A stretch of 64,000 bases of DNA from NCBI GenBank assembly GCA_963829055.1, contig CAWHHI010000016.1, positions 1,056,001 through 1,120,000 on the forward strand, read 5' to 3'. Below, piece by piece: positions 627-63,984 of this stretch. Under the pieces are notes generated by a model. That model did no database searches, was not told where the DNA came from, and was given only the letters and a program-made list of their open reading frames with translations. Each line of letters opens with the position of its first letter. Position 1 is the stretch's first letter. Made by a program: the position numbers and the translations under genes. This DNA comes from an uncultured Gemmatimonadaceae bacterium. GTDB lineage: Bacteria; Gemmatimonadota; Gemmatimonadetes; Gemmatimonadales; Gemmatimonadaceae.

Positions 627-737
627 GGCGGGCCTGGCTCTCTATTACGAAACGGTTAAATGCGGACCCGTGCGGTGGCAGGGCTCGGGACGTGCGGTCA
701 CATTCGACGTTAGGGACAATCCGATGAGGGACGCCTC

Positions 738-1840
738 ATGTTCAGCACGTGCCTGTTCTGCCACAGTCGCCTCGGCAAGAACGAGGTAGTCGAGCACTTT
801 CCCGTCGGCTCGCGCCTCGCGTTCGACAGCGCGCGAGGCCGGCTGTGGGCGGTGTGCCCCGGGTGCCGCCGGTGGAACCTGTCGCCGCTGGATGACCGCT
901 GGGAGGCGATCGAGGAGTGTGAGCGGCTGTTCAGAAGCACCCGTGCCCGCGTCTCGACCGAGAACATAGGCCTGGCGCCGCTCGCGAGCGGCGTGGATCT
1001 CATCCGGATCGGACAGCCGCTCCGACCCGAATTCGCGGCGTGGCGCTATGGATCGCAGCTGAAATGGCGGCGACGTCGCGCTGGGTATCGCTGCCGGCGT
1101 CGCCGGCGCCGCGGGCCTGGCCGCGATGGCCGTGACCGCGCCACCGCTGCTCGCGGCGCTTCCTCTCCTCTCACCGGCGTTCCTTGGCCTCGGCGTGAGC
1201 GCTCCGCTCTGGGTCGTGCCCGGAATGATCGCGATGGACATCAAGGACCACTGGCAGTGGGAGCGCGTCGCGCTCCGAGTGGCTGGGCCGCAGGGTCGGC
1301 CTCTCACCGTGCGGGTCCGTCATCTCTGGGAGTCGGCGTACTACACCGACCGCCACACCGACGAGCTGGCGCTACGCCTCGTGCACGACGGCGGCGTGAC
1401 GCAGTACGAAGGCGATCCCGCGCTCTCCGCCGGCGGGCGCCTGCTCGCGCGCGCGAACTGGCTCGGCGGCGCGAGCCGGATCGTGCAGCGCGCCGTCAGC
1501 CAGATCGACGAGAGCGGCGACGCGGACGGGTTCCTGCACAAGACCGCGTCGCGGTTCTCGCGGTTTCATGGGAAGCGCATGATGGCGCAGCTACCGTCGC
1601 GTCGGGGCGATGAGCCTGCTGCCGGTGGAGCGACTCGCGCTCGAGATGGCGGTCCACGAGGAAGCGGAACGCCGCGCGCTCGACGGCGAGCTCGCGCGCC
1701 TCGCGGAGGAGTGGAAGGAGGCGGAGGAGATCGCGGCCATCGCCGACGACATGTTCGTGGAGCCTAACGTCAGCGACTGGATCAGCGACCGCGCCGCGGC
1801 TCGCCAGGCACTGACGTCCGGACCCGACGCTCAGCCGTAG
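738..1840 (+). CDS. Hypothetical protein: N-terminal Zn-ribbon (CxxC...CxxC), hydrophobic segment, C-terminal helical domain; two apparent frameshifts
   Basis: ORF pieces 738 (MFSTCLFC...VCPGCRRWNL), 1126 and 1610 join end to end. A GAGG RBS precedes the ATG at 738. Confidence 0.7.
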
Positions 1841-1841
1841 T

Positions 1842-2342
1842 TCAGCGGTAGTTGCCGAACTTCAGCTCCACGCCGAAGTCCTTGCCGCGCAGGAGCTGCA
1901 TAACGAGTTGCAGCTCGTCGCGCGACGGCGAGGTGACGCGCACCTGCTCGCCCTGAATCGCGGCCTGGACCTTCTTCATCTTCGCGTCCTTGATGGCGGC
2001 GACCACCTTCTTCGCGGTGTCGCCGTCGAGCGACATCTTGAGGCCGATGTCGCGACGCACCATGTCGCCGCCCGCGGCCTTGATGTCGCCGATGTCCAGA
2101 TTCTTCACCGGCACGCCGCGCTTGATCAGCTTCGCCTGGAGCACGTCGAACAGCGCCTGCATGCGAAACTCGCTGTCGGCGGCCAGCAGGATCTTCCCCT
2201 CCCCGCGCTGGAAATCGATCGTCGCCTTCGAATCCTTGAAGTCGTACCGCTGCGTAATCTCCTTCTGCGCCTGGTTGATCGCGTTGTCGACTTCCTGCAG
2301 GTCGACTCCGGTGGTGACATCGAAGGAATTCTGCTGAGCCAT
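1842..2342 (-). CDS. yajQ: YajQ family c-di-GMP/nucleotide-binding protein
   Basis: SFDV...VDLQEVDNAINQAQKEITQRYDFK...KVQAAIQGEQVRVT...RDELQ...FGNYR matches the YajQ signature. Confidence 0.95.
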   Translation of the reverse strand: MAQQNSFDVTTGVDLQEVDNAINQAQKEITQRYDFKDSKATIDFQRGEGKILLAADSEFRMQALFDVLQAKLIKRGVPVKNLDIGDIKAAGGDMVRRDIGLKMSLDGDTAKKVVAAIKDAKMKKVQAAIQGEQVRVTSPSRDELQLVMQLLRGKDFGVELKFGNYR

Positions 2343-2382
2343 GATCGGGACTCGGAGACGAGGACGTTGAACTGCGCTTGTT

Positions 2383-2424
2383 GCTGGGTGGTCGTGCTGG
2401 TGGCTGGGTGACGCTGAGTGCTGA
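2383..2424. repeat. Copy 2 of the ~40-bp dispersed element, upstream of yajQ
   Basis: GCTGGGTGGTCGTGCTGGTGGCTGGGTGACGCTGAGTGCTGA. Confidence 0.75.
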
Positions 2425-2439
2425 TTGCTTCCCGTTAGA

Positions 2440-2470
2440 GCTGATGGCTGATGGCCAATGGCTGATGGCT
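2440..2470. repeat. Short 7-bp tandem repeat (GCTGATG x3 plus GCCAATG variant)
   Basis: gctgatg gctgatg gccaatg gctgatg gct read directly. Confidence 0.7.
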
Positions 2471-2473
2471 AGC

Positions 2474-2952
2474 TCAACTAGTTCGTCCGGTGTCACTGGG
2501 CGAAGTAAAATATCGAACCCGAGCCAGGCCAGCTTCGAGAACGGGAACAGCACGAATGGCGCGGCAGCCATCGCCAGCGGCGCCGCCCACTGCAGCGTAT
2601 CCCAGGGCACGTTAGGCCACGTGACCAGCAGCGTCGTGACGAAGCCGACGGCGAACAGCATCTCCGACACGACGAGGTTGAACAGCATCGAGCCGATGAA
2701 GTAGTCACGCTCTCCGCGCTCGATGGCGAGGCCGCAGTTGCCGCATCGCGCGCGCATCTTGAACCAGTGCACGAGCACCGGGCCTCGGCCGCAATGCGGG
2801 CACCTGATACGCATGGCGCGCCAGAGCACCTCGAGAACGCGCCGCGAACCGGGCCACGACATTGCGCGCGACGACTCGATTCGTTCCGCGGCGATCGGCT
2901 GCTGGGGCGAGCGCGGATCGCGTGGATCCGCGCGAGGATCGCTTGAAGCCAT
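2474..2952 (-). CDS. DUF983-like membrane protein with Zn-ribbon (3' end uncertain)
   Basis: RCPHCGRGPVL..WFKMRARCGNCG followed by two TM helices and PFSKLAWLGFD. The ORF-track read-through to 1831 is probably a lost stop. Confidence 0.7.
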
Positions 2953-2986
2953 GCTTGGAAGCCTAATCGTTCAGCACACGGATGCA

Positions 2987-3016
2987 CGATGGGCGGGTCC
3001 GCGGACCCGCCCATCG
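2987..3016. terminator. Perfect 30-bp palindrome downstream of the sigma factor gene (terminator or REP-like hairpin)
   Basis: CGATGGGCGGGTCCG|CGGACCCGCCCATCG. No clear U-tract. Confidence 0.5.
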
Positions 3017-3041
3017 ACCACCAGAGTCACACAGCGGCTGC

Positions 3042-3899
3042 TCAGCCGAGGAAGCTCTCCAGAGCCCGCGCACGTGATACGTGGCGCAGGCGCGAGAGCG
3101 CCTTCTCCTTGATCTGTCGGACGCGCTCGCGCGTGATACCGAGCAGTGAACCGATCTGCTCCAGCGTCATCGGCTCCTCGCCGTCGAGGCCGAAGTACAG
3201 GCGGAGAATCTTCGCCTCACGCTCTTTCAGGCTCGACAGCGACTCCTCGATGGCCTCGGTGAGCGCCTTCTCGAACGTCTGCTCGTCAGGCGTCGGGTTG
3301 ACGTTGTCGGCGAGGTAGTCGAGCAGCTTGTTGTCTTCGCCTGGCGTGAGCGGCGCGTCGAGGGAGAGGTGGGTCTGCGAGATGGACATCGTCTTCGCGA
3401 CCTCTTCCTCGGTGATGTCCATCCCCTCAGCGATCTCGGCGTGCGTCGCTTCGCGGCCCAGCTCCTGGAGCAGCGAGTTCGCGCGCTTGCCGATCCGGTG
3501 CAGCGTGCCTGCGCGGTTGAGCGGCACGCGCACGATGCGCGACTGTTCAGCCAACGCCTGCAGGATGGCCTGCCGGATCCACCACACCGCGTACGAGATG
3601 AACTTGATGCCCTTCGTCTCGTCGAATTTGTGAGCGGCGCGAATGAGCCCGAGGTTGCCCTCGTTGATCAGATCCGAGAGCGAGACGCCCTGGTTCTGAT
3701 ATTTCTTCGCCACCGAGACGACGAAGCGCAGGTTCGACCGTACCAGCTTGTCGAGTGCTTCCTGATCGCTCTTGCGGATGCACTGGGCGAGCCGGACCTC
3801 CTCATCGCGACTGATCAGCGGATACGCGCTGATGTCGCGGAGGTACTGGTCGAGCGAGCCTTCCTCGTAAGAACTTTTTTTCGGCGGGGTGGCGGCCAT
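3042..3899 (-). CDS. RNA polymerase sigma-70 factor, RpoD/SigA family (short form lacking region 1.1)
   Basis: Region 1.2 LDQYLRDI, region 2 NLRFVVSVAKKYQNQG...DLINEGNLGL...KFISYAVWWIRQ, region 4 MTLEQIG...TRERVRQI. AAGGAG RBS precedes the ATG at 3899. Confidence 0.93.
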   Translation of the reverse strand: MAATPPKKSSYEEGSLDQYLRDISAYPLISRDEEVRLAQCIRKSDQEALDKLVRSNLRFVVSVAKKYQNQGVSLSDLINEGNLGLIRAAHKFDETKGIKFISYAVWWIRQAILQALAEQSRIVRVPLNRAGTLHRIGKRANSLLQELGREATHAEIAEGMDITEEEVAKTMSISQTHLSLDAPLTPGEDNKLLDYLADNVNPTPDEQTFEKALTEAIEESLSSLKEREAKILRLYFGLDGEEPMTLEQIGSLLGITRERVRQIKEKALSRLRHVSRARALESFLG

Positions 3900-3994
3900 A
3901 CGACCAGCGGCTCCTTCGGTGTTCCTCTTTTCCCACCGCGCCTTCGCGCGCTTCGTGAGACGATCGGAGGGATTGTCCATTTCGGGACGGGAGG

Positions 3995-4776
3995 TCAACG
4001 GACGCGCTCCCCGATGCGAGTCCAACGGATTCTAGTCAGCCACGACATCCGATCCAGCGAGTCGGGATCGTAGCTGTAATAGACGAACATCGGGCGTCCG
4101 CGGATGAGCGAATCAGGAACGAACTGCCAGTATCGACTGTCGAGCGAATTATCCCGATTGTCGCCGAGAACGAAATACTCGTCCTTCGGGACGACCAGCG
4201 GACCCCAGTTGTTTCGTGACGGCGTCGAACCGGTCGCCGCCTGCGGCCGACTGCACCAGGTACTTCTTCTGCCACTCGAACTCGACGGAGGTCGGATCCA
4301 TCTCCGGCTCGCTGTGAGTTACGTAGAGCTCCTTCTGCTGCACTCCGTTCAGAAAGAGCTCGCCGGATCCTCATCTCGAGCGTATCGCCCGGAACGCCGA
4401 CGAGTCGCTTCACGAAGTTCTTCGTGGGATCGACCGGCCATTGGAAGACGATGACATCGCCGCGCTGCGGATGACGAATCGCCGGAAGATGCTTGCCGGT
4501 GAACGGCACTTCTGCGCCGTACACCATCTTGTTGACCAGCAGAAAGTCGCCGACGAGCAGCGTCTTCTCCATGCTCCCGCTCGGGATCTTGAACGCCTCG
4601 ACGAGGAACGTTCGCACGAACAGGAACAGGATGATCGCGATCGTGAATGACTTCGCCCATTCGAGGAACAGCCCCCAGTGCAGGCCGGGGCTCCGGTTCA
4701 CGCGCCTCAGCGCTTCCGCGCGATGCTCCTCGCTGACCGGCGGACGGACCGGCGTCGTATGGGCGGCTTCGCTCAT
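3995..4776 (-). CDS. lepB: Signal peptidase I (apparent frameshifts near 4370 and 4215)
   Basis: FKIPSGSMEKTLLVGDFLLVNK (catalytic Ser), NFVKRLVGVPGD (catalytic Lys), then in other frames YFVLGDNRDNSLDSRYW. Stop at 3995. Confidence 0.92.
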
Positions 4777-5189
4777 TGCGAGGATGTCAGAGAAGGCGAA
4801 TCAGGAACGAACGAAACGATCGCCGAGAGTCGCGTCGCGACGCGCTCGGCAGCAGCGCGCGATGCCGCAGCCAGACGAACCGTCGCGACCGTGTGACGTC
4901 CCGAAGTACTGGTCCCCATTCCGAGCGGCGCGATCGACTCCGCTGCGAGAGCGGCGCGAACGCGTGAGCCGAGATCAGGTGCTGATGGCGCGGTGAAGAC
5001 AGCCACAATCGCCTCGGTCGCTGTATCTGCAAGGCCACCGGACGGCGCAGCCGAGAGCGACTCGAGCGCGTCGCCAACGCGCGCGACAGCGTCTTCGATG
5101 AGGTGACGAGGCACGCCCCGTCCCTCGACTCTTCGTTGCACCCGCTCTGCGAGCGCGCGACGCATGTCGTGTGTCAGCGCCATTGCCAC
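4773..5189 (-). CDS. Hypothetical protein with ACT-like C-terminal domain
   Basis: 138-aa ORF overlapping the lepB start by 4 bp. IVAVFTAPSAPDLGSRVRAALAAESI..LGMGTS has an ACT-like pattern. Confidence 0.55.
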   Translation of the reverse strand: MAMALTHDMRRALAERVQRRVEGRGVPRHLIEDAVARVGDALESLSAAPSGGLADTATEAIVAVFTAPSAPDLGSRVRAALAAESIAPLGMGTSTSGRHTVATVRLAAASRAAAERVATRLSAIVSFVPDSPSLTSSQ

Positions 5190-5273
5190 CCGGTCAATTA
5201 ATTCGCGGAATCAGACGTTCGCAAGCGAGCCAGGACCGCGCTCGCGATTGCCCGCACAGAACGTCGCCAGCGC

Positions 5274-6774
5274 TCACGTCGGACTGCCAGCGTAGTTGTC
5301 GATCTGGGCGCGCTGCAACGATCCCGAGAAATCGATGTAGCCGACCTTCGTTTCCGAGTAGAACTCGTAGACCTCCCACCCACCTTCGCGGTGGCCGTTC
5401 CCCGTCTGCTTTACCCCCCCGAACGGGAGGTGTGCCTCAGCGCCAATGGTCGGCGCGTTGATGTACGTGATGCCGTTGTCCAATTCCACCAGCGCGCGAT
5501 ACGCCACGTTGACGTCCTGCGTGTACACCGACGACGACAGTCCGTACTTCACGTCGTTGTTCACCGCGAACGCTTCCTCCGGGGTCGACACGCGAATCAC
5601 CGACAGCACCGGACCAAAGATCTCTTCCTGCTCCAGACGACTGCCAGGCTCCACACGGGCGAAGATCGTCGGCTCGAAGAAGAAGCCCTTCGACAACGCT
5701 CGCGCTTCGGGCCGCTTTCCTCCGCACAGCAGGTCCGCGCCCTCGGCCTGACCGATGTCGATGTACTGCTCGACCTTTTCGCGGGATGCCTCGTGGATCA
5801 GCGGACCGACGTCGGTTCCCTTCTTCCGCCCGTCTCCAAGTCGCAAACCTCTTGCCTTATCGACGAGCAGCCCGAGGAAGTTGTCATGAATTCCGCCCTG
5901 AAGGATGAGCCGGCTCGTGGCCGTGCAGCGCTGGCCGGCTGTGCCGAACGCGCCCCAGAGGACGCCGTCCAGTGCCAGCTCGAGGTTTGCGTCATTCAGC
6001 ACGATCTGCGCGTTCTTCCCGCCCATCTCGAGCGAGAGCCGCTTGTGCATCCGACCGCACACTTCGCCAACAACGCGGCCCGTTTCCGTCGAGCCCGTGA
6101 ACGAGATCACCGGAATCTCCGGATGTTCGACGATCGCTGCACCCACAGTCTCACCACGCCCATGCACGAGCTGGATCACTTCGGGCGGTAGCCCTGCCTC
6201 GAGCAGTATCTCGACCAGCACCGTCGCGGTATGCGGCACGTCCTCGGCTGGCTTGAGGATCACCGAGTTTCCGCAGAGCAGCGCCGGAAACATCTTCCAC
6301 GTCGGGATGGCCATGGGGAAGTTGAACGGCGTCACCAGGCCACATACGCCAATGGGACGCCGGAAGCTCATCGCCCACTTCGCCTGCAACTCACTAGGCA
6401 CTGTGTGGCCAAAGAGGCGGCGTCCTTCAGTGGCGGCGTAGTACGCCGTGTCGATGCCTTCCTGTACGTCGCCGCGCGTCTCCTGGAGTGGCTTCCCCAT
6501 CTCGCGGGTCATCAGGTCCGCGATCTCTTCCTTACGGTTGGTCATGAGATCGCCGACCCGTCGCAGCACGTCGCCACGTGCGGGCGCCGGTGTGCGACGC
6601 CAGATCTCGAACCCACGCTTGGCGGATACCACCGCGTTGTCGACGTCGACGCGACGTCGAGAGCGGAAACCGGCCGATGATGTCTGTCGTATCGGCCGGG
6701 TTGACATTCTCGAAGTGCTCGCCGGAGGACGGCTCAGACCAGGCCCCAGCAATAAAATTGCGGAAAATCTTCAT
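5274..6774 (-). CDS. Aldehyde dehydrogenase family protein (frameshift near 6660)
   Basis: TPFNFP, KPAE, FTGSTETG, LEMGGKN, GQRCTA (catalytic Cys), EEIFGPV, PFGGVKQTG. True N-terminus MKIFRNFIAGAW is in another frame. Confidence 0.95.
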
Positions 6775-6856
6775 GTTGAAAGCTATCGGTGGTGGGCTCG
6801 AGCGTCTGGAAGTGTAGCCGCTGCCCGCGTGCGGGCAAAACGCCACCACCCGGCGG

Positions 6857-7297
6857 TCACGGGCACATCCACCCGGGGCGTGTCGGGTCGGGCTTCGCAT
6901 AGCCGGTACGCGGAAGGATCTCGATCGCGCCCAGGACGCCACCCCAGAGCACGAGCAGCAGCGCGAGGACGTGGCCGCGCGACGAGCGATGCCGCCACGT
7001 CCATACAGACGTCCATACGCCTGCTCCGATGACCACACCGACCGCGGCGAGATAGCCGGCGAGCGCGAGCCCGCAGCGTGTCTCATACGGCCAGAAGACC
7101 ATCCCGATGCCGAGCGCTACCGCGAGAACCAACCGCGCCATGACACCGAGCGTCGACGTGCTCTGCTGCTTCGCGACCGCCTCGGCGCGAGCCTGCGGTG
7201 TCTTCGCCGATTTCGCCGGGAGCAGCGCCTCGTCCGATGCCCCTTCGAGCATGCGGTCGATCTTCTTCATCTCGGTGTCCCAATCTTTCCCGCTCAT
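6857..7297 (-). CDS. Hypothetical membrane protein (3 TM helices)
   Basis: 146-aa ORF with three hydrophobic stretches. Start overlaps the stop of the upstream regulator. Confidence 0.75.
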   Translation of the reverse strand: MSGKDWDTEMKKIDRMLEGASDEALLPAKSAKTPQARAEAVAKQQSTSTLGVMARLVLAVALGIGMVFWPYETRCGLALAGYLAAVGVVIGAGVWTSVWTWRHRSSRGHVLALLLVLWGGVLGAIEILPRTGYAKPDPTRPGWMCP

Positions 7298-8665
7298 CAG
7301 ACTGTCTCTCTCGTTAGGCCGTACCGCTCGATCTTCTTGTAGAGATTCGATCGCGGCATCTCGAGTGCACGTGCCGTCTCCGACACGTTCCAGTCGAATT
7401 CACGAAGCTTGGCCAGCAGGAACGCACGCTCCGCGGCGTGCTTGAACTCTTCGAACGTCTTGCAGTCCAGCAGCGATCCGAGACTGGCGTTGTCCGTGAC
7501 GCGACGGCCAGCCAGGCGCTCGACGTCGGCAACCACGATGCGCGGGCCCGACGACAGGATGAGCAGGCGCTCGAGCGTGTTGCGAAGCTCTCGCACGTTG
7601 CCGGGCCAGTCCATGTTCGTGAGCACGTCCACCGCGGCCGGATCGAGCACGCGCGGCGGCACGCCCTCGCGCTCGGACAGCGTGCGCACGAAGTGCGACG
7701 CGAGCAGCGGGATATCTTCGCGCCGTTCACGAAGCGGCGGGATGTGGACCGGCACGACGTTGAGTCGGTAGTAGAGGTCTTCGCGGAAGCGTCCCGCGGC
7801 GATCTCCTCTTCCAGATTCTTGTTCGTCGCGGACAACACGCGCACGTCGACCTTCACCGGCTTCGCGCTGCCGATGCGCGTCACCACGCCATCCTGCAAT
7901 ACGCGCAGAACCTTCGCCTGCGCGGACTGGCTCATGTCGCCGATCTCGTCGAGGAAGAGCGTGCCGCCGTCGGCCTGCTCGAACTTCCCTGGCCGATCTG
8001 ACACCGCGCCAGTGAACGAGCCTTTCATGTGGCCGAACAACTCGCTCTCGATCAACTCGCTCGGGATCGCCGCGCAATTGACTTCGACGAACGGCTTCGA
8101 GGCGCGTGGCGACATGCTTGTGAATCGCGCGCGCCACGAGCTCCTTGCCCGTCCCGTTCTCGCCGGTGATGAGCACGCGCGCTGGCGTCCCGCCGACCTT
8201 CTCGATCTTGTCGATGACCGCGCGAATCGCGAACGAGCGGCCGACGATCTCATAACGCGACTCGATCGTCTGCTTGAGCCTAACGTTTTCTTCCTGCAGC
8301 TCGAGATGCTGCAGTGCGTTCCGCAACAGCACGAGAATGCGATCGGTGTCGAGCGGCTTCTCGAGGATGTCGTACGCACCGAGCTGCGTCGCCTCGACGG
8401 CCGTCTGGATGGTCGCGTGTCCGCTGATCATCACGACCGTAGCCGACGGGTCGATCTGCTTGATGCGTCGCAGCCCCTCGAGGCCGTCCATGCCGGCCAT
8501 CTTCACGTCCATGAACACCAGATTCGGACGCCACTTCTCGTACTCCGCGATGCCGTCCGCGGCGTTGCCCGCGGTCCTGACCTCGTACCCCTCGAACTCC
8601 AGCAGCTGGCCGAGCGCGGCCCTGATGCCCTGCTCGTCGTCGACGACGAGAATCCGGCGGCTCAC
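7297..8665 (-). CDS. Sigma-54-interaction-type response regulator, NtrC/NtrX family (frameshift near 8117)
   Basis: Receiver ILVVDDE...[14 protein letters not shown]+ [47 protein letters not shown]-terminal Fis-type HTH. Confidence 0.93.
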
Positions 8666-9333
8666 TTGACCGTCTTGTAAAGGGTGACTTTGCCATTGGC
8701 GACGCGGGTGTCGCCGATGTACGTTGGCAGCACGAACGGCAGGCCGTTCTCCAATACGCCATCCGGTCGGGTACCGCGCCGAATCTGACGGAGCAGTTTC
8801 GGAATGGCGCCGCGCGGAATCGGCAATTCGCCGAGCTTGATGTCTTCCACGAGGAATTGCGCGAGGCCGGGTCGGATGATCGCGAATGTTCCGCCCATCT
8901 GCAGTCGCTCCCTGCGCCCCACCATACCAGCGAGGGGTCCGAGAGCATCAGCGGCCTTGAAGTCATCGAGCGAGATGACCGCGCGGACGTACATCCGGTT
9001 CGCGATCGTGGCCGCCTCGATGCTGTCGGCCGACGGTGGCAGCTGCGCGGCGAGTGCAATGTAGAAATAGGACGCGACGTCCCCGGGTGGCAGGTTCACG
9101 AACACCGGCCCGCTGCGCCTGCCTAACGACTCGATCGTGCGTCGCGCGCGCGCGGCAGCTTCGTCACTCACCGGTTCCCACGTCGGGCCCCCGCTGGCGG
9201 CGACGGTCGTGCCCGAGCGTGGCACCTTCGCGCTGATCAGCGGCAACCACCGGTCGCGCAGGAAATACGCGGCGACCGCAACAACGCACAGCACGAATAG
9301 ACAGCCGATCCTCCGGAAACACCCGAACATCAC
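8662..9333 (-). CDS. Hypothetical membrane-anchored protein
   Basis: 223-aa ORF with N-terminal TM/signal anchor; overlaps both neighbours by 4 bp. Confidence 0.7.
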   Translation of the reverse strand: MMFGCFRRIGCLFVLCVVAVAAYFLRDRWLPLISAKVPRSGTTVAASGGPTWEPVSDEAAARARRTIESLGRRSGPVFVNLPPGDVASYFYIALAAQLPPSADSIEAATIANRMYVRAVISLDDFKAADALGPLAGMVGRRERLQMGGTFAIIRPGLAQFLVEDIKLGELPIPRGAIPKLLRQIRRGTRPDGVLENGLPFVLPTYIGDTRVANGKVTLYKTVK

Positions 9334-11023: not shown

Positions 11024-11032
11024 GCGGAGAAG

Positions 11033-13105: not shown

Positions 13106-13232
13106 TCCAATGCGGCGGACGAAGGAGCGCGCACTCACGGCTCGCGTCCGCGTAGCCCAGTGCGTCAGGGACCTCCTGCAAAGCAAGATGAGTGCTGCGT
13201 GGGATTCCAAACGCAGGAGCCTGTCTCTGGAA

Positions 13233-50985: not shown

Positions 50986-51099
50986 AAACCACATCAGTGC
51001 GAACAGCGTAAGCCAGCTTCACTGCGCGAATTATACAACATACGTCCAGCCGTTTATCCGATACTGAACGAGACGGACCGGGCGGTGTATATTCTTGCC

Positions 51100-51780: not shown

Positions 51781-51807
51781 CGGTCGATCGCTGAACCTGG
51801 CGACTCG

Positions 51808-51840
51808 AAACGCTCCGCTCCGCGCGGAGCGTTTTGTATT
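51808..51840 (+). terminator. Intrinsic terminator
   Basis: AAACGCTCCGC-loop-GCGGAGCGTTT followed by TGTATT. Confidence 0.6.
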
Positions 51841-51911
51841 GTTGGACCCATGAAACCGCTCGTTAATGTCCGCCGTACGACCAGCCAGCCTTTCGTCCAG
51901 GATCCCGTCTA

Positions 51912-53400: not shown

Positions 53401-53414
53401 GCATAGAGGAAGAA

Positions 53415-54701: not shown

Positions 54702-55531
54702 CCGCACAAACAACGGGCGAGCGCGCGGACGACTCGCTCGCGACAACGGGCGAGCACCCGATGAGCACGACCGCCGAACGCAAGGCGGTCGTCGAGCTGG
54801 CCGGACAGGCGCCGAGCAAGGAGTGGGTGATCGTCACGCGCGGCCTCAAGCGTGAATACGACATGGGTGGCGAAATCGTCCGTGCACTTCGCGGCGTCGA
54901 CATCGCCATCCGCCGGAACGAGTACGTCGCCATCATGGGACCGTCGGGGTCGGGCAAGTCGACGCTCATGAACCTCATCGGCTGTCTCGACACGCCTAAC
55001 GAGGGCGAGTACTGGCTCAACGGCGCGATGGTGTCCACGATGAGCGACGACGCGCTCGCCCGCGTGCGCAACAAGGAAATCGGGTTCGTATTCCAGACGT
55101 TCAACCTGCTCCCGCGCGCGACGGCGCTGCACAACGTCGAGCTGCCGCTCGTGTACGCGGGCGTTCCGTCCGACGAACGGAAGCGCCGCGCCCGGGAAGC
55201 GCTCGAGCGCGTGCAGCTCGGCAACCGCATGGATCACAGACCTAACGAGCTGTCGGGCGGACAACGCCAGCGCGTCGCCATCGCGCGCGCGCTCGTGAAC
55301 AACCCGTCCATCCTGCTCGCCGACGAACCGACCGGTAACCTCGATTCGCAGACGTCCGAAGAGATCATGCGCGTCTTCGAGTCGCTGGCGTCACAGGGGC
55401 AGACGGTCATCATGGTGACGCACGAGCCGGACATCGCGGCGCATGCTCGCCGCGTGGTCGTGCTTCGTGACGGCGTCATCGCAAGCGACGACCGCCGAGC
55501 GGCGTTCGCGGCGCGCGTAGGCCTCGAGTGA
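54698..55531 (+). CDS. ABC transporter ATP-binding protein (MacB/LolD-like)
   Basis: [39 protein letters not shown]. Alternative start at 54761. Confidence 0.95.
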
Positions 55532-56769
55532 ACTTCCTCGAGGCCGTTCGGCTCGCATTGTCCCAGATCAGGGTGCAGAAGCTGAAGAGCTTCTTCACCC
55601 TGCTTGGTGTTGTCATCGGCGTGATGTTCCTCATCGCCGTCGTGTCCATCGTCGAGGGCATGAGCCGGTACGTCGAGGAAGACTTCGCCGCCAAGATCAT
55701 CGGCAAGAACACGTTCTCCTTTCGACGTCGCCCCGATGTGAACGTCGGCAACGTGAGCGAGGAGACGTGGCGCGAGTATTCGCGGCGCCCGCGAGTGTAC
55801 GAGCGGGACGTCGCCGTCGCGCGCAGTGCCCTGCCCCCCGGCACGCTGTCGGCCGTCGAGAACATGACGTTCGCCTACGCGAACTCGCAGTTCGCGCGGC
55901 CGCGCCAGGTGCAGGTGATCGCCACCGAGTCCGACTACTTCCGCATCAAATCGTACAACCTGACGAGCGGCCGTCTGTTCTCGCCGCAGGAGGCAGAGCT
56001 CGGAACACCGGTCGTCATCATCGGCACCGAGGTCGCGAGCCACTTCTTCCGCGGGCTCGACCCCGTCGGCCGCGAGCTGCGTATTGGCGGCACACCGTAC
56101 GCCATCATCGGCGTCCTCGAGAAGCAGGGCAACGTGTTCGGCTTCTCGCTGGATCGTATGGTGATCGGCCCCTACAAGTCTGCCCTGTCGCGCGTCACGA
56201 ACCCGCGAGGTGACGTCGATGCGCTGGTCGTGCAAGCGCCGTCGCGCGAGATGCTCGACGACGCCCTCGAGAGCGTTCGTGAAGTCATGCGTGGCTTCCG
56301 TCGACTGCCGCCGTCACGACCGGACAACTTTGCGCTCGAGACGTCCGATGCGGCGCTGTCCTTCTTCGATGAGCTCAAAGGAAAGTTGATTCTCTTCGGC
56401 ACTGCCCTTCCCGCGATCGGTCTCGTGGTAGGCGCCATGGTCATCATGAACATCATGCTTGTCGCAGTGGCCGAGCGTACGCGTGAGATCGGCATTCGCA
56501 AAGCGCTCGGGGCGAAACGTCGTGATATTCTGTCGCAGTTCCTCGTGGAGTCGGCGACGCTGAGCGTCATGGGTGCAGCGATAGGCATCGGACTCGGTAT
56601 CGCTCTCGCGAAAGTCATCGCCGCCGTGTCGCCGCTTCCGGCGAGCGTCGCGCCGTGGTCCATCCTGCTCGCGCTTGGCGTGGGTGCCGGCGTCGGAATC
56701 CTCGCCGGGATGTATCCCGCGAGCCGCGCGGCGCGGCTCGATCCCATCACCGCCCTCCGTCAGGAATAG
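55528..56769 (+). CDS. MacB/FtsX-type ABC permease 1
   Basis: [53 protein letters not shown]. Confidence 0.95.
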
Positions 56770-56772
56770 CCG

Positions 56773-58039
56773 ATGCGATTTCTCGATCGGCTGACGATCA
56801 TCAAGGAAGGCGTCGGCATCGCCATCGACGCCATTCGCGCCAACAAGGTGCGCGCGAGCCTAACGATCATGGGTGTTGCCGTGGGCGTGTTCGTGGTCAC
56901 CGCGATGGCCGCCGCCGTGCACGGCATTCGCGCCAGCTTTCAGGGGGACGTCGAGGCATTCGGTGCGTCGTCCTTTCAGGTGCGGCGTCGCGGCATCCAG
57001 CTCGGTGGCTGCGACGGAAGCGACGACACCTGCCCCGAGCGACGCAACCCCGCGCTGACGGTGGGTGAGGCGGCTGCAATGCGTCGACTACCGAGCGTCG
57101 CCGCCGTGACCGTCCACTGGTCGGACTCGCGCCCGTTCCGCTTTCACGATCGCTACCTCCAGGATGTGGGGTACGACGCGATGAGCGCGGAATGGCTCGA
57201 GACTGACGCGGGCGACATCTCGCCAGGCCGCAATTTCTCTGCACTCGAGGAGCAGGCGGCGGCTCGTGTCGTGATCATCAACGACTCGCTCCAGGCGCAG
57301 CTGTTCGCCGAGGGTGACCCGATCGGGAAACAGATTCAGATCGCGTCACAGCCGTTCACCGTGATCGGCGTCTACCACACGAGCGCCGGCTTCCTCAAGA
57401 CGATGGACGGCCGCGGGCCGGACAAGCCGCGGGGTATCATCCCGTTCATGACGGCGCGACGTCACCTCGGCCTCTGGGATCGTGGCGTGAGCATGATGGT
57501 GAAGCCGCGTCCGGATGTGGATCAGGCGCAGGCCATGGACGACGTCACGGCGCTCATGCGCGGCATGCGCGGTCTGCGACCCGCGTCAGCCTAACAACTT
57601 TGCGCTCGTGACATCCGAGCGCATGATGGAAACGTTCGACAAGATATTCGGCGCCATTTTCATGGTCGGCCTCGCGCTCTCGGCGGTTGGGCTGATGGTG
57701 GGTGGCGTGGGCGTCGTCGCGATCATGATGATCAGCGTCACCGAGCGCACGCGCGAGATCGGCGTGCGAAAGGCGCTGGGCGCGACGAAGGGAACGATTC
57801 TCTGGCAGTTTCTCGTCGAGGCCGCGACACTGACATCGATTGGCGCGGTGATCGGTCTCATTGGCGGCGCCGGTGTTGCCGCGCTCATGAAGGCGTTCTC
57901 GCCCATCCCCGCGGCGGTGCCCGGACAGGCGATCCTTGCGGCGCTCGTAGGCAGCGCGCTAACCGGGATTCTGTTCGGCATGATGCCGGCTGCACGGGCG
58001 GCCCGACTCGATCCCGTCGAGGCGCTGCGATACGAATAG
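56773..58039 (+). CDS. MacB/FtsX-type ABC permease 2 (frameshift near 57585)
   Basis: RASLTIMGVAVGV...VGGVGVVAIMMISVTERTREIGVRKALGA...ARLDPVEALRYE. Confidence 0.92.
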
Positions 58040-58077
58040 GCCCCGACGCGAAGCTTCAGCACATGCGGTGTTCGTTG

Positions 58078-58114
58078 AAGCGGGGCGCGTCGAGACGACG
58101 CGCCCCGCTTTCTA
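58078..58114 (+). terminator. Intrinsic terminator after permease 2
   Basis: AAGCGGGGCGCGTCG-AGA-CGACGCGCCCCGCTT followed by TCTATT. Confidence 0.75.
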
Positions 58115-58163
58115 TTGCCAGCGTCTCACGAACGATGGATGCTTCAGCATCGGTCGATCACGG

Positions 58164-58192
58164 TTGAGAATTTAGGCGTAACTAACTATATC
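58164..58192 (+). promoter_or_regulatory. Candidate sigma-70-like promoter for the permease 3/4 unit
   Basis: TTGAGA-17 nt-TATATC in a locally AT-rich intergenic patch. Confidence 0.4.
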
Positions 58193-58312
58193 TTTCCGCG
58201 GTCCTCAGATTGGGCGATCCCTCGCGATGGCGTATCTTACTTGTGAATCTTTTCACAAGAACGAGATCGCACAGGGTTGGTATCTCTCCTACCGGTAGGC
58301 GTCCCCCGACGC

Positions 58313-59555
58313 ATGCGATTCACTGACGTTCTCGGCATTGCCCTGGGACAGATCCGAGCGAACAAGCTCCGCTCGTTCTTCACCCTGCTCGGCATCATCG
58401 TCTCCGTCGCGTTTCTCGTCGCTGTCGTTGCGATCATCCAGGGGATGAACGCGTACGTCCGCGAGAACATCGCCGGCGCAGTCGTCGGCGCGAACGCGTT
58501 CCAGGTACGGCGAACTCCGCTTCAGCTGGCGCCAGTCGAGCGACGGAGATATGGACCGGATCCGGCGACGCCCGAGAATCACACAGCGTGACGCCGCAGC
58601 CGTCGCAGCGGCGCTCCCCGACGCGGCCGCCATCAGCATTCAATCCGGATGGCCGACACCGCAGGCGGATGTCGTCTGGCGCGACAAGACGCTCGCTGAC
58701 GTCCCCATTTTCGGCGTCACGCCGTCGTATCAGGAAGTCCAGGACTACCGGATCGCCGACGGACGTCCGCTCACGGACGTCGATCTGGCGCAGCGCCAAC
58801 CGGTCATCGTCGTCGGCGCCGAGATCGCGGAGAAGCTGTTCGAGAACATTCCGGCGGTCGGTCGCGACGTCCGCATTCTTGGCGAGCGCTACACCATCGT
58901 CGGTGTGATCAAGCCCAAGGGCCGAGTGCTCGGACAGTCGTTCGATGCGTTCGTGCTCATGCCGCTCAACCGCTTCGAAATGTTGTACGGCCGGCGCAGC
59001 ACCACGACGATCTCGGTCAAGATGAGCGAGGCGGTGGACGTCGCGCCCGCGATGGCTCGGGCCGAAGAAGCGATGCGCATCGCGCACGGGTTGCGGCCTA
59101 ACGAGGACAACGACTTCTCCGTCGAGACAGCCGATGCGCTCGTCAACTTCTGGAAGACGCTCACGCGCGTGCTGTTCAGCGTTATTCCCGCGGTGGTCGC
59201 CATCGGCATCGTCGTGGGCGGTATCGTCATCATGAACATCATGCTGATGGCCGTGAACGAGCGCACGCGCGAGATCGGCATCAGGAAAGCCGTCGGCGCG
59301 ACGCGCTCGGACATCAGCCGCCAGTTCTTCGTCGAGACGATCACACTCTCGAGCCTCGGTGGCGCGATCGGGGTTCTCGGCGGATGGATCTTCGCCATCG
59401 TCATCGCGTTCGCGTCGCCGCTTCCGGCACGCGTGAGCTACTGGTCCGTGATTCTCGCGCTGCTGCTGGGCGCCAGCGTCGGCGTGCTGTTCGGCGTGTA
59501 TCCGGCGAGACGCGCGGCACGCCTCGATCCGATCACCGCGTTGCGCGCGGAGTAG
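58313..59555 (+). CDS. MacB/FtsX-type ABC permease 3 (frameshift near 58535)
   Basis: KLRSFFTLLGIIVSV...[22 protein letters not shown]...[12 protein letters not shown]. Confidence 0.92.
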
Positions 59556-59587
59556 ACCATGCGGCGTATCGTGACGAGGACCCTAAC

Positions 59588-60832
59588 GTGAAACTTCTCG
59601 ACCAGCTCCGCGAGAACATCGGCATCGCGTTCGACGCCCTGCGCACGAGCAAGCTGCGCTCGGCGCTCACGATTCTCGGAGTGGTGATCGGCGTATCGAC
59701 CGTCATGTCGATGGCGGCCATCGTGCGCGGCATCCAGAAGCAGATCGTGCGGACGATCGAGATCGCCGGCCCCACGACGTTCTACGTCGTGAAGGTGTAC
59801 TCGCAGACGCCGTTGAACCCGGACGCGCTGCCGAGGTGGGTGCGCGTCCGCCCCAATCTGACGAAGTACGAAGCTGACCGGATCGCGGCACTCCCCGAGA
59901 TCTCGTACGGCGCGATCTGGGCGCAGATCGCTGGCCGGCTCGAATACCAGGGACAGCGAACGCAGGTAACCCAGATCTTCGGCGCCGACGACAGGTACAC
60001 GGAGATTCAAGGCGGGGAGTTGACCTCGGGGCGCTGGTTCACGCGCGCGGAGTTGGCCGCCGGATCCTCCGTCGCCGTGGTCCAGGAGAACGCGGCGCGT
60101 CGGCTGTTCGGCCGCGAGAATCCGGTCGGAAAGACCATTCGGCTCGGCGGGCGTCCAGTCGAGGTCATTGGCCTCTACGTCCCGCCGGAGAACATCTTCG
60201 CGCCGCCGGGTGCGGAGACGGGCGCCATCGTTCCGTACGTGCTGCTCGATCACCAGTTCACGATCGACCATACGAACGGTCAGTACATCGCGATCAAGCC
60301 TCGCGCGAACGTCACGGTCGAACAGGCCCAGGAGGCCGTCACCGTGCTGCTTCGCGAGCTACGGCACCTCCGGCCCGCGGACAAGAACTCGTTCGACCTG
60401 ATGACGCAGGACCAGATCCTCGACATCTTCGACAAGCTCACTGGCGCGTTCTTCCTCGTCATGATCGTGCTATCATCGGTCGGGCTCATGGTCGGAGGCA
60501 TCGGCGTGATGGCGATCATGATGGTGTCCGTCACGGACCGCACGAGGGAGATCGGCGTCCGAAAAGCGCTCGGTGCCACGCGAGGCGACATCATGCTCCA
60601 GTTTCTCATCGAGGCGGCCACGCTGACCGGGATCGGCGGGGTGATCGGGATCGCGCTCGGGCTGGGTATGGGCGGTATCGTGACGAAGCTGATGAAAGTC
60701 GATGCGGCGCCGCCTGCGTCTCTTACGGCGATCGCCGTCACGGTGTCGATCGGCATCGGCGTCATCTTTGGCCTTCTGCCCGCCCGCCGAGCGTCACGGC
60801 TGGACCCGGTCGAAGCCCTCCGGTACGAGTAG
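59588..60832 (+). CDS. MacB/FtsX-type ABC permease 4
   Basis: KLRSALTILGVVIGV...VGGIGVMAIMMVSVTDRTREIGVRKALGA...SRLDPVEALRYE; GAGGA RBS before the GTG. Confidence 0.93.
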   Translation: MKLLDQLRENIGIAFDALRTSKLRSALTILGVVIGVSTVMSMAAIVRGIQKQIVRTIEIAGPTTFYVVKVYSQTPLNPDALPRWVRVRPNLTKYEADRIAALPEISYGAIWAQIAGRLEYQGQRTQVTQIFGADDRYTEIQGGELTSGRWFTRAELAAGSSVAVVQENAARRLFGRENPVGKTIRLGGRPVEVIGLYVPPENIFAPPGAETGAIVPYVLLDHQFTIDHTNGQYIAIKPRANVTVEQAQEAVTVLLRELRHLRPADKNSFDLMTQDQILDIFDKLTGAFFLVMIVLSSVGLMVGGIGVMAIMMVSVTDRTREIGVRKALGATRGDIMLQFLIEAATLTGIGGVIGIALGLGMGGIVTKLMKVDAAPPASLTAIAVTVSIGIGVIFGLLPARRASRLDPVEALRYE

Positions 60833-60851
60833 CTCGTGTTAGGTTCCGCGC

Positions 60852-61571
60852 ATGTCTGATTTGCACGTTCTCGCGATCTTCGCCCACCGAGACGACGCCG
60901 AGCTCACATGCGGCGGCACCTTGATCAAGCTCGCCGGTCAGGGGCACCGAGCCGGGATTCTCGATCTCACCGCCGGCGAGATGGGATCACGCGGGTCCGC
61001 CGATCTGCGCGGGGCGGAGGCGGATCGCGCGGCAGCGATCATGGGCCTCGCGGTGCGCGAGAACCTCGGGCTGCCTGACGCGGGCATCATGAACACGCCG
61101 GAGACCCGTCGTCTCGTGGCGCGGGTCATCCGGCGGCTTCGTCCGACGATCGTGATCGCGCCCGCTCAGCAGGGGCGACATCCCGATCACCGGATTGCGT
61201 CCGAGCTCGTGCGCGACGCGTGCTTCATCTCGGGGCTCGCCAAGATCGAGCCCGATCTGCCGAAGCACCGTCCGCGGAAGGTCATTCACTGCCTTTCGTA
61301 TCGCGAGGATCATCTGCGCCCGACGTTCGTCGTCGACATCTCGGCCGAGTTCGAACGGAAGCTCGAAGCGATTCGCTGCTACGGGTCACAGTTCGATAGC
61401 GTCACGCAGGCGGGCGAAGTGTACCCGAACGGCGATCCGCTGTACGACATCGTCCGTCATCAGGCCGCGCACTACGGTTCGTTGATCCGCACGCGCTACG
61501 GCGAGCCATTCTTCACGACCGAGACGATGCGCGTCGACGACATCACCACGCTCGAGGTAGCGACGTTTTGA
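60852..61571 (+). CDS. bshB1: Bacillithiol biosynthesis deacetylase BshB1 (PIG-L family)
   Basis: AHRDDAELTCGGT, LDLTAGEMGSRG, RHPDH, PTFVVDIS..FERKLEAIRCYGSQF, YGEPF. Confidence 0.82.
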   Translation: MSDLHVLAIFAHRDDAELTCGGTLIKLAGQGHRAGILDLTAGEMGSRGSADLRGAEADRAAAIMGLAVRENLGLPDAGIMNTPETRRLVARVIRRLRPTIVIAPAQQGRHPDHRIASELVRDACFISGLAKIEPDLPKHRPRKVIHCLSYREDHLRPTFVVDISAEFERKLEAIRCYGSQFDSVTQAGEVYPNGDPLYDIVRHQAAHYGSLIRTRYGEPFFTTETMRVDDITTLEVATF

Positions 61572-62380
61572 CCCCTCCCGACGAGTCGCACGCTGCCGCT
61601 CCCGTATCGTACGGGTCCTACCTCGCGCTCGACGAGCTTCTCTCGCTGCAGCGGCCGCGCGCGGTGCCGGAGCACCCCGACGAGCTGCTGTTCATCGTCG
61701 TGCATCAGGCGAGTGAGCTGTGGTTCAAGTGCATTCTCCATGAGATGGACCAACTCGTCGCGGCGATGGAGCGCGGTGAAGTCATGTACGCCGTCCTCAC
61801 CGTCCGGCGTATCAACGCGCTCGTGCAGATCGTTTCGTCGCAGCTCGCCGCGCTCGAGACGATGCCGCCCCAGCACTTCGCGCAATTTCGCGGCTACCTC
61901 GGCACGTCGAGCGGTTCGCAGAGCGTGCAGTTCCGCGCGCTCGAAGCAGCGTCGGGATCGCGCGATCCACACTTCATGCACGTGATCCAGGAACACGGTG
62001 AGGTTCCGGATCTCATCAAGCAGGCGCTCGGGCGCCCGACACTGGAGGAGCTATTCGAGCGCCTGGCGGCGCGCGAAGCCGTGACGGTGGAGTCGCTCTA
62101 CACCGGTCCCGCTCCCACGCCGCTGTTTCTGCTGGCCGAGGGGCTGTTGGAGTACGACTCGGGATTTGCCAGGTGGCGATTTCTGCACGTGCAGCTGGTC
62201 GAACGCATCATCGGGCCGGCCACCGGCGGAACCGGCGGTACGTTAGGCGCGCGCTATCTCCAGCGAACGATCGCGCAGCGATTCCTGCCACGCCTGTGGG
62301 CAGTGCGGGCGAAGTTCTACAACGCGACATCGCCGGACACCGCGGGCGGCGATTCGACGGGGGACGCGAGTCCGCGGTGA
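61568..62380 (+). CDS. kynA: Tryptophan 2,3-dioxygenase
   Basis: YGSYLALDELLSLQ, DELLFIVVHQASELWFK, FRGYLGTSSGSQSVQFR, WRFLH..LVERIIG..GTGGT.G..YL. Confidence 0.92.
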   Translation: MTPPDESHAAAPVSYGSYLALDELLSLQRPRAVPEHPDELLFIVVHQASELWFKCILHEMDQLVAAMERGEVMYAVLTVRRINALVQIVSSQLAALETMPPQHFAQFRGYLGTSSGSQSVQFRALEAASGSRDPHFMHVIQEHGEVPDLIKQALGRPTLEELFERLAAREAVTVESLYTGPAPTPLFLLAEGLLEYDSGFARWRFLHVQLVERIIGPATGGTGGTLGARYLQRTIAQRFLPRLWAVRAKFYNATSPDTAGGDSTGDASPR

Positions 62381-63003
62381 TCCGGGACATCAGCATCGCG
62401 CTGCGAGAAGGCACGCCTGAGTGGCCCGGCGATACGCCGTTCGCCTGCCGATGGGCGACGCTCATCGCCAACGGCGAGAGCGTGAACGTGTCGGCAGTGA
62501 TCGGGAGCCCGCACGTCGGGACGCATGCTGACGCGCCGCTCCACGTGCGCGATGGCTGGCCCGGTTCGCATGAGCTGCCGCTCGAGGCGTTCGTCGGCCC
62601 GGCGACCGTGGTGGACGTCAGCGGGCATTCGGGCGTCATCGAGGCCGACGCGTTAGGCTACGACCCCGAAGCCCACGGCGAACGGCTGCTGCTGAGAACC
62701 GGCAGGACGATCGCCGGCGGCCAGTTTCCTAACGAGTGGCCGACGCTGAGCGAGGCGTGCGTGCGCGCGCTGGTCGGGCGTGGACTGCGGCTGCTGGGCG
62801 TTGATGCGCCGTCGGTGGACACGAGGGAAAGCAAGACGCTCCCGGTGCATCACATGCTGTTCTCGGGCAACGCATACATCCTCGAGAATCTCGATCTGCG
62901 CCGCGTGCCCACGGGGCCATACGAGCTGATCGCGCTTCCGCTCAAGTTCATGGCGCTGGATGCCGCGCCCGTGCGCGCCGTTCTCCGCGACGTACAGGGC
63001 TGA
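62377..63003 (+). CDS. kynB: Kynurenine formamidase (cyclase family)
   Basis: WPGDTPF, PHVGTHADAPLH, RLLLRT, GVDAPSVD, ILENLDL, YELIALPLK..DAAPVRAVL; adjacent to kynA. Confidence 0.9.
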   Translation: MIRDISIALREGTPEWPGDTPFACRWATLIANGESVNVSAVIGSPHVGTHADAPLHVRDGWPGSHELPLEAFVGPATVVDVSGHSGVIEADALGYDPEAHGERLLLRTGRTIAGGQFPNEWPTLSEACVRALVGRGLRLLGVDAPSVDTRESKTLPVHHMLFSGNAYILENLDLRRVPTGPYELIALPLKFMALDAAPVRAVLRDVQG

Positions 63004-63012
63004 GACACGCGG

Positions 63013-63984
63013 GTGACCACGCCGCCCGGCTACGCGATTCGCGCCGACCAGCTCACGTGTGACTTCGGCCCGGTGCGAGCACTCGACTCCCTCTCGCTCG
63101 AAGTGCCCAGCGGGATCGTGTTCGGATTTCTCGGACCTAACGGCGCCGGGAAAACCACAGCCATCCGCGCGTTCCTCGGTCTCATCGATCCGAGCGCGGG
63201 CCGGGCCGAAGTCCTCGGCTTCGACACCCGCCGGGAAGCGACGACAATTCGCACGCGCTGCGGCGCGTTGCTCGAGCATCCTGGCCTGTACGAGCGACTC
63301 ACAGCGAAGGCGAACCTCGACTTCTATGGGCGTGCGTGGCACATACCGCGGCCCGTCCGGCAGGATCGCATCCGCGAGTTGCTGACGCGGTTCGGACTGT
63401 GGGACCGACGCGACGACCCAGTCGGCCGCTGGAGCCGTGGCATGAAGCAGAAGCTGGCGGTCGCGCGCGCTGTGCTGCATCGCCCCGCTCTGGTATTTCT
63501 CGATGAGCCGACGTCCGGGCTGGATCCGGTGGCGACCGTGGGCCTGCGTGAGGATCTCGCCGCGCTCGCCGCCCAGGAAGGCGTCACCGTGTTCCTGACC
63601 ACGCACAATCTCAACGAAGCCGAACGGCTGTGCGCGCAGGTCGGTGTGATTCGCGGCGGGAAACTGCTCGCCGTCGGTAGTCCCGAGTCGCTCCGTGCGC
63701 GACGCGATTCCGGACGCGTGCGCATCTCCGCCCGCGGATTGACCGAGGAGCTACTCATGTCGCTCCGGGCACGGCCGGACATCCAGTCAGCGGCGGCGGA
63801 CGACGGTCAGCTGTCGCTCGCCCTCCGGAATGGCGCGAACGTCGCACCGATCGTGGCGTGGCTCGTCCAGCACGACGTCGAGGTGGAGGAGGTCGTGAAG
63901 ACGCGCGCGACACTCGAGGACGCGTTTCTCGATCTCATGGGGCTGGACGCCGCCGGACCGGCGCTCGGCAGGGGTGACGCGTGA
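63013..63984 (+). CDS. ABC-2 type transporter ATP-binding protein
   Basis: GPNGAGKTT, WSRGMKQKL, FLDEPTSGLDP, TTHNL, TLEDAFL. Confidence 0.93.
   Translation: MTTPPGYAIRADQLTCDFGPVRALDSLSLEVPSGIVFGFLGPNGAGKTTAIRAFLGLIDPSAGRAEVLGFDTRREATTIRTRCGALLEHPGLYERLTAKANLDFYGRAWHIPRPVRQDRIRELLTRFGLWDRRDDPVGRWSRGMKQKLAVARAVLHRPALVFLDEPTSGLDPVATVGLREDLAALAAQEGVTVFLTTHNLNEAERLCAQVGVIRGGKLLAVGSPESLRARRDSGRVRISARGLTEELLMSLRARPDIQSAAADDGQLSLALRNGANVAPIVAWLVQHDVEVEEVVKTRATLEDAFLDLMGLDAAGPALGRGDA

Follow-up and report, generated by a model that had tools for sequence, protein, structure and literature searches.

A hyper-abundant octamer written into Gemmatimonadales chromosomes and an AP2-like protein as its candidate reader

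Why should one short, non-palindromic word recur throughout the ordinary genes of a bacterial chromosome, and which protein might read it? The question is raised by a 64,000-nucleotide stretch from an uncultured Gemmatimonadaceae bacterium (contig CAWHHI010000016.1, positions 1,056,001 to 1,120,000; hereafter the window, G000:C16:1056001-1120000, where G000 is the source genome), in which CCTAACG, mostly as the octamer GCCTAACG, occurs 41 times on both strands. We show that this word is real, strongly enriched and selected at the DNA level, and we suggest that, together with its likely reader, a small AP2-like protein, it points to a mode of bacterial chromosome organisation that has not been described. 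In the literature searched, which took in few subscription journals, neither the word nor the candidate protein was the subject of any paper.

All 41 window positions listed in the original prediction proved exact. The word lies on the minus strand in 21 copies, read as CGTTAGG on the plus strand (708..62657; starts at 708, 2610, 7312, 14404, 15250, 16635, 17535, 18208, 19246, 20768, 26322, 27177, 33235, 34431, 38962, 44233, 48180, 50085, 53395, 62241 and 62651), 15 of which extend to CGTTAGGC, and on the plus strand in 20 copies (1763..63142; starts at 1763, 8279, 9122, 14602, 21466, 22386, 31973, 32839, 37479, 38274, 41574, 44383, 45808, 54995, 55241, 56859, 59097, 59582, 62728 and 63136), 15 of which extend to GCCTAACG, so that 30 of the 41 reach the octamer. 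The chance expectation of about 7 copies proposed at the outset was too high; a synonymous-codon shuffle of the 56 called window genes yielded 2.05 +/- 1.35 copies (maximum 6 in 300 shuffles) against 31 observed. Genome-wide, 4,201 copies were counted in 6,565 called genes, a 15-fold excess over the 264-291 found in three synonymous-codon shuffles. The 7.78 Mb of the source genome hold 6,391 CCTAACG, 5,004 GCCTAACG and 7,103 CCTAAC, distributed over all 20 contigs and both strands; the word ranks first among all 7/8-mers under order-2 and order-3 Markov nulls, and masked-Markov expectation for the octamer is 16-120. A base-calling artefact is ruled out, because 2,501-5,112 copies are present in each of the six remaining members of the genus and contigs from four independent runs span several window sites at ~98-99% identity, none of the 40 difference rows listed (of 954) falling inside a site. 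Since our gene calls (9,022 genes, 83% coding) came from a purpose-made dicodon caller, and the assembly on which it was run has many single-base indels, gene-relative positions are approximate. Several such indels, relative to short-read contigs, lie at 7001-27000 of the window, where some open reading frames (ORFs) are therefore split by assembly errors.

The grammar of the word is strict in its core CCTAAC and graded at its flanks: in the source genome, the first position is G in 5,004 copies, A in 827, C in 428 and T in 132, and the last is G in 5,004, A in 435, C in 112 and T in 79. Among inner one-off variants, GCATAACG alone is clearly enriched (583 copies, 12-16-fold), followed by GCCTGACG at 2-3-fold. 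Placement of the 6,391 copies is no less informative: 4,521 fall wholly in called genes, spread over the four open frame/strand classes, 608 overlap called stop codons, 17 overlap starts and 1,245 are intergenic. The expected use of the word as a stop (CGT TAG G) was borne out in the window, where the minus-strand copy at 53395..53402 supplies the TAG of a plus-strand ORF ending at 53400. Codon choice bends to the word. TTA makes up 44.5% of Leu codons in permissive context vs 0.3% in controls, CTA 53.8% vs 1.3%, and CCT AAC is used for 40% of Pro-Asn pairs; in rpoC, the word is written by synonymous changes at invariant residues, often two steps off the preferred codon. Sites are also kept. 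At positions permissive in both genomes compared, the source genome shares 8 sites with G001 (1.0 expected), 11 with G014 (3.4 expected, at 53% third-position identity) and 1 with G239 (0.7 expected), hence conservation beyond codon expectation holds for the first two relatives and not for the third.

Chi and KOPS (FtsK orienting polar sequences) are polarised within a replichore. A dif-like site at G000:C16:560799 coincides with the GC-skew maximum, and 76-90% of genes within ~450 kb are co-oriented towards it. About dif, the word counts are 154/202 on the left and 186/179 on the right while a KOPS-like word flips there, and the absence of polarity confirms that the word is neither Chi nor KOPS; nor is it palindromic like HIP1. 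Its density is 1.0 per kb in genes rich in G+C at third codon positions vs 0.6 in genes poor in it, and 0.81 per kb between divergent genes vs 1.48 between convergent genes; both 23S genes hold no copy, and no RNA carrying the word is listed.

A further property, which like the attC identity discussed below goes beyond the original prediction, is mutual exclusion at short range. In long genes of the source genome, with codon opportunity as the null, observed/expected ratios of pairs rise from 0.10 through 0.24, 0.40, 0.49, 0.66, 0.80 and 0.89 to 1.0 from <50 to 400 bp, and a linear ramp of ~380 bp fits slightly better than a 225 bp exponential. Avoidance is alike for direct and both inverted orientations, pairs under 50 bp standing at 0.2-0.4 of expectation in each, and no helical phasing at 10-12 bp was seen in the source genome. 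Under 100 bp, the enriched variants are likewise depleted near GCCTAACG (0.28-0.52), while non-enriched one-off variants show no avoidance (0.87-1.2). The range is the same, and the avoidance shallower, in G014 (838 sites in 435 kb) and G239 (397 in 260 kb); Verrucomicrobiota-like loci, picked by their paired pattern, supplied 102 sites for the same comparison. The tightest pair of the window (62651..62734) lies 77 bp apart, a distance at which in-gene pairs are depleted about four-fold genome-wide. We suggest that this avoidance reflects redundancy of neighbouring sites on double-stranded DNA.

Word-rich genomes comprise all seven of the genus and scattered genera in three families of the order. 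Among 251 sampled genomes of the phylum (sizes rounded; the unpublished G013, G084, G123 and G202 entered solely as word-poor rows), 14 reach at least 33 copies per Mb, none of them outside the order, and word-rich and word-poor taxa interleave in an rpoC tree of 30 genomes. The 428-aa ORF at 53415..54701 (plus strand) of the window served as anchor for 80 orthologous loci, nearly all from Gemmatimonadota and mostly from Gemmatimonadaceae. A metagenome scan recovered a second group of seven loci (GC 0.53-0.60) with the dialect GCCTAACGA, one protein of which is nearest to Verrucomicrobiota clusters, making Verrucomicrobiota a second phylum with the word. Foreign DNA is poor in it: contig ends of 36-48 kb in the source genome have similar GC and no copy, and carry genes that look foreign as judged by eye from protein starts. 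The word-free, foreign-looking contig ends at G000:C6:6854-55038, C6:598000-623330, C11:7377-44055 and C4:1-2850 are probably chimeric joins. One such join cuts short a second intI. The lineage-specific DNA-level signal originally proposed is upheld, the word using rare synonymous codons in core genes, being shared between genera and missing from foreign DNA. Viral pattern scans returned mostly cassette arrays and chance pairs, plus two word-rich phage records: provirus L226 (G273; 25 kb with 26 copies) and a second record (21 kb with 16 copies), both with a host-like dialect, the latter having a relative with 2 copies in 20 kb. Across L226, L338 (G274; its relative word-poor) and L517, density and dialect seem to be those of the host.

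Which protein might read such a word? As copies repel each other, genes were ranked by the number of upstream sites, and this single criterion, applied ahead of any profile run, chose the candidate. The original remark that no cognate protein is identified in the window holds, the candidate lying on another contig: a plus-strand gene at G000:C3:271467-271769 (L602:9467-9769) encoding 100 residues of net charge +18. Five sites stand in the 250 bp upstream of it and of its divergent neighbour, and of no other gene among the 9,022 called, and this is the sole such window in the genome; the sole cluster of three sites in 40 bp and the sole tandem of 8-bp period are found there too. The -35 box of a predicted sigma-70-like promoter shares bases with one site, and the tandem stands just upstream. 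Arrays of 8-bp period occur at about -45 to -90 in all seven genomes of the genus, the orthologs in the other six having 4-7 upstream sites each, with tandems; altogether 24 orthologs show 53 sites in 6,000 bp upstream, vs 1.04 per kb in the source genome, and the 17 outside the genus account for 20 sites in 4,250 bp. The protein (26 Lys and Arg vs 8 Asp and Glu) has Lys/Ala tails, no hydrophobic segment and no export signal, and from its predicted sequence is cytoplasmic. It is annotated as hypothetical, has 250 close homologs and 943 representatives at E <= 0.001, and belongs to a family in which 3 of 10 homolog clusters looked up contain named Verrucomicrobiota proteins; a search of viruses gave four weak loci. 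Just upstream of each of two two-domain AP2-like paralogs (L629 and L630, in G164 and G120) is a variant site.

The protein also follows the word across genomes. In a single-protein search, 24 of 28 genomes rich or intermediate in the word gave strong matches (E <= 5e-19), and 52 word-poor ones gave no strong match and one weak one (2.7e-4). By profile search of the 251 genomes, homologs are present in 13 of 14 word-rich genomes (at least 33 copies per Mb) vs 22 of 237 others; within the family the counts are 8 of 9 word-rich vs 1 of 45 word-poor, and within family f2 they are 5 of 5 vs 21 of 108. Several comparisons of sister taxa along the rpoC tree (G018/G137, G077+G257/G011 and G171/G035) show the word and the protein changing state jointly. 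Of the protein classes correlated with the word as originally suggested, this candidate DNA-binding protein co-occurs with it, and the methyltransferases searched and the pilins tested do not. The predicted model has a three-stranded sheet (strands 20-25, 30-41 and 47-56) packed on a C-terminal helix (63-85), with a core predicted local distance difference test score of ~84, disordered basic tails, and conserved Arg and Trp of the family placed in the sheet. Its three closest structural neighbours are Toxoplasma mitoribosome chains (Z 7.3-7.9), which we take to be AP2-type, and the fourth is the DNA-bound AP2 repeat of Plasmodium SIP2 (6sy0; Z 6.2, root-mean-square deviation 3.1 over 60 aligned residues); Z to the AP2 structure 2gcc is 4.2. 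PF00847 (AP2) was matched by 14 of 37 scanned relatives, 4 above cut-off, and AP2 is found on 10% of the members of an atlas cluster mainly of Verrucomicrobiota. The candidacy of this protein therefore stands on three partly independent lines, namely promoter array, co-occurrence and fold.

Several observations weigh against it. The profile search was empty in the word-rich G239 (974 copies per Mb, 96% complete) and in G036, G038 and G040 (87-98%), although G239 may use another reader, because its tolerance spectrum differs. Conversely, 22 word-poor genomes hold homologs; of the 18 read, nine have His for a conserved Tyr, eight are without the Arg of the W-R-P motif, one is a distant two-domain type and none has an upstream array, a Tyr/Arg split that was drawn after the data had been seen. 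In 400 kb from eight word-poor homolog-bearing genomes no replacement word was found; one 20-kb stretch of this sample had a cassette array and another a local repeat. Of the top profile matches, 13 are themselves part of the profile, and the 52 word-poor genomes of the single-protein search include none of the 21 order-level holders, for which reason the 251-genome count is the fairer one. Kin are not independent, so Fisher P values of the co-occurrence overstate it. The best Z (7.9) falls in a range common among unrelated folds, the candidate itself had no match in Pfam and none by Foldseek at E <= 0.001, 6 of the 17 orthologs outside the genus are without an upstream site (some starts being misplaced), and Verrucomicrobiota homologs have no established link to word-rich genomes. 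Finally, word density is continuous (34 to 1,247 per Mb), and native word-free gaps of 10-16 kb in the source genome mean that regular coverage is not required.

Weighing these points, we consider that the AP2-like protein is probably the reader of the word, while the purpose of its binding is less secure; from the genomic evidence we infer binding, autorepression and a nucleoid role, and on balance lean towards GCCTAACG being the site bound by a sequence-specific nucleoid protein under autoregulation. Of the three options in the original prediction, a nucleoid-type site is thus now favoured, an uptake sequence has become less likely and a methylation-maintained motif is unsupported. In the mechanism that we propose, the double-stranded site would have CCTAAC as its core, G favoured at both ends and C-to-A tolerated at position 3, and would be read through the sheet of the AP2-like three-strand-plus-helix domain, with the Lys/Arg/Ala-rich tails gripping or bridging adjacent DNA over a few hundred bp, as in a sequence-addressed nucleoid organiser. 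Each bound site would confer a small local benefit to which a second within ~380 bp adds nothing; selection would then place a copy in about every kb, in either orientation and through synonymous changes, and keep it, close pairs staying rare, and opposing codon and promoter constraints would set the observed density, frames and spacing. The tandem promoter array would be a feedback loop limiting the protein's own synthesis. Affinity would be expected to be highest for GCCTAACG, weaker for ACCTAACG, GCATAACG and GCCTAACA, and nil for GCCTCACG, GCCGAACG and GCCCAACG. It is conceivable, and here we are more tentative, that in soil Gemmatimonadales, and separately in some Verrucomicrobiota, an attC-core-binding AP2-fold protein with histone-H1-like tails was recruited as a sequence-addressed chromatin protein with a footprint of ~350-400 bp, thousands of synonymous codons being rewritten as its address code.

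The core consensus of integron attC sites is RYYYAAC / GTTRRRY. In word-poor genomes, what few copies of the word there are belong to cassette arrays, in which attC sites open with GCCTAAC and terminate in CGTTAGGC. The word thus matches exactly both boxes, R'' and R', of attC in the Gemmatimonadales; Rfam had no match on these arrays. This identity suggests that the AP2-like family first bound integron sites, and integrons are reported from both Gemmatimonadota and Verrucomicrobiota (PMC8618304). It could also mean that the AP2-like protein or the integrase IntI binds attC cores to regulate cassette shuffling, genomic copies being decoys or by-products, as might be read from the tolerated variants, which resemble attC ends, and from the homologs persisting in word-poor f2 genomes, one right behind an attC-like site. 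We judge this improbable. Near the degenerate intI, the source genome has ~10-15 attC-like hairpin sites vs 7,103 cores; attC-like inverted pairs are depleted like others; the common attC variants (RYDTAACG), sought as an alternative dialect, are hyper-abundant in none of the 251 genomes; and no attC follows any of 44 homolog genes examined. Matches to IntI were obtained in 45 of 65 genomes, whether word-rich or word-poor, and G014 combines an IntI from another clade with the dialect of the source genome, dialect following the species tree. A domesticated IntI as reader was rejected on the same grounds, the copy of the source genome (L084:12008-12985, G000:C20:208008-208985, with about five attC 15-45 kb past its 3' end) lacking the catalytic Lys and first His that its orthologs keep; XerC/XerD were rejected because the arms of dif differ from the word. 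A different alternative, also unlikely though less so, is a DNA uptake sequence: a receptor at the cell surface or in the periplasm, which possibly evolved to fish integron cassettes with the word at both their ends, would prefer word-bearing DNA, uptake and recombination would spread the word, and the AP2-like protein would be a later passenger. The orientation neutrality, the density gradient towards genes of native composition, the lineage dialects, the complete competence set of the source genome and the ~380 bp ramp, which fits short fragments, are all compatible with it. Two uptake sequences within 100 bp bring no added uptake in Haemophilus (PMC7811141), uptake is set by the strongest single site whatever its orientation (PMC1939737), and integrons are fed with cassettes by transformation (PMC12614218). 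However, ComEC, ComEA and DprA occur in word-rich and word-poor genomes alike (5/5 each), neither PilW nor either of two orphan pilins follows the word, the protein that does so is without an export signal, inverted terminator pairs are absent, whereas in Haemophilus 23% of sites have a neighbour within 100 bp (PMC7811141), and most one-off variants are unenriched, unlike those of uptake signal sequences (PMC2817400). Orphan pilins and a minor-pilin cluster were rejected as receptor, since they follow the species tree. In the five genomes viewed (L178-L182), comEA is directly upstream of pilB.

A self-mark for defence, whereby bound protein would label native DNA, word-less DNA would be silenced or degraded and phages would copy the word, could account for the word-free foreign stretches and for the host-like phage records, and it too seems distinctly improbable: it is at odds with the native gaps and with densities down to 34 per Mb in protein-bearing genomes, no nuclease was shown to co-occur, and proviral copies also fit ordinary amelioration. 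We give very little credence to a ratchet in which a methyltransferase and directed repair make the word by biased mutation. HIP1 is similarly abundant and conserved beyond codons (PMC5861425), and the source genome has one orphan D12-class methyltransferase, but this enzyme is missing from G014, G164, G120 and all searched f2 and f3 genomes and present in word-poor ones; PF02384, PF01555 and PF00145 had no match in the source genome (86% complete), three other motifs are listed for the Gemmatirosa methylome (PMC3974934), and graded flanks and mutual exclusion misfit independent site creation. In these incomplete assemblies, none of the four methyltransferase families searched tracks the word, and they were rejected as its cause. 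The orphan D12 gene (L194, L196, L197) lies between a CoA-transferase and an extracytoplasmic function sigma gene, and has matches in 25 of 65 genomes, all of one family. Ssn-type hairpin repeats, confined to the genus and not tracking the word, were also rejected. Such a repeat (core GTCATYCYGAGC) has 1,020 copies in the source genome, and hundreds of copies in this genus only; three copies flank a 99-codon GIY-YIG frame at L529:889-1188 (G000:C3), an arrangement resembling the NTS/SRM repeats with SsnA nuclease (PMC11893778).

Hyper-abundant words are known from two families of competent bacteria and from cyanobacteria, whose HIP1 has had no settled function for three decades. To these is added another, in abundant soil phyla, now with a named candidate reader, so that one protein preparation and a few oligonucleotides would do to test why genomes bear the codon cost of so many copies. 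The word visibly bends coding sequence and links integron sites to chromosome biology, and it can serve as a working tag when genomes are binned, chimeras sought or phages assigned to hosts; if the proposal is true, bacteria would offer a case where such a word can be studied along with its reader and its spacing rule.

AP2-type domains read words of 6-8 bp. The candidate shares with AP2/ERF and ApiAP2 (PF00847) proteins the predicted three-strand sheet and helix, Arg and Trp in the sheet and relatives that match PF00847, and differs in its longer beta-hairpin, lack of a direct Pfam match, stand-alone bacterial occurrence, Lys/Ala tails and putative sites that are genome-wide and mostly coding. 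Small basic size, Lys/Ala tails and autoregulation are features shared among nucleoid-associated proteins, histone H1-like proteins and organisers of the MatP, SlmA and ParB type, and the predicted size and charge of the candidate would fit; to our knowledge, the abundant nucleoid proteins are weakly specific and the specific ones have tens of palindromic sites, none codon-written by thousands. Like the DNA uptake sequences (DUS) of Neisseriaceae and uptake signal sequences (USS) of Pasteurellaceae, the word is short and non-palindromic, has thousands of copies in both orientations with preferred in-gene frames, is scarce in foreign DNA, and shows lineage dialects and close copies that are non-additive (PMC2817400, PMC1939737, PMC7811141); unlike them, it forms no inverted terminator pairs, avoids close pairs, has most one-off variants at background and co-occurs with a cytoplasmic protein, not a pilin. 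With HIP1 it shares the form of an octamer at about one per kb, conservation beyond codons, a proposed role in chromosome structure and patchiness (PMC5861425, PMC13756078), and it differs in being non-palindromic, in the lack of a cognate methyltransferase among those searched, in showing short-range exclusion where HIP1 shows kilobase periodicity and in having a candidate reader. Compared with the attC core to which it is identical, the word consists of single boxes without hairpin, lies in core genes, is far stricter and is independent of IntI presence. The word thus shares features with DUS/USS and HIP1, but departs from each in defining features, as it does from Chi/KOPS and from attC.

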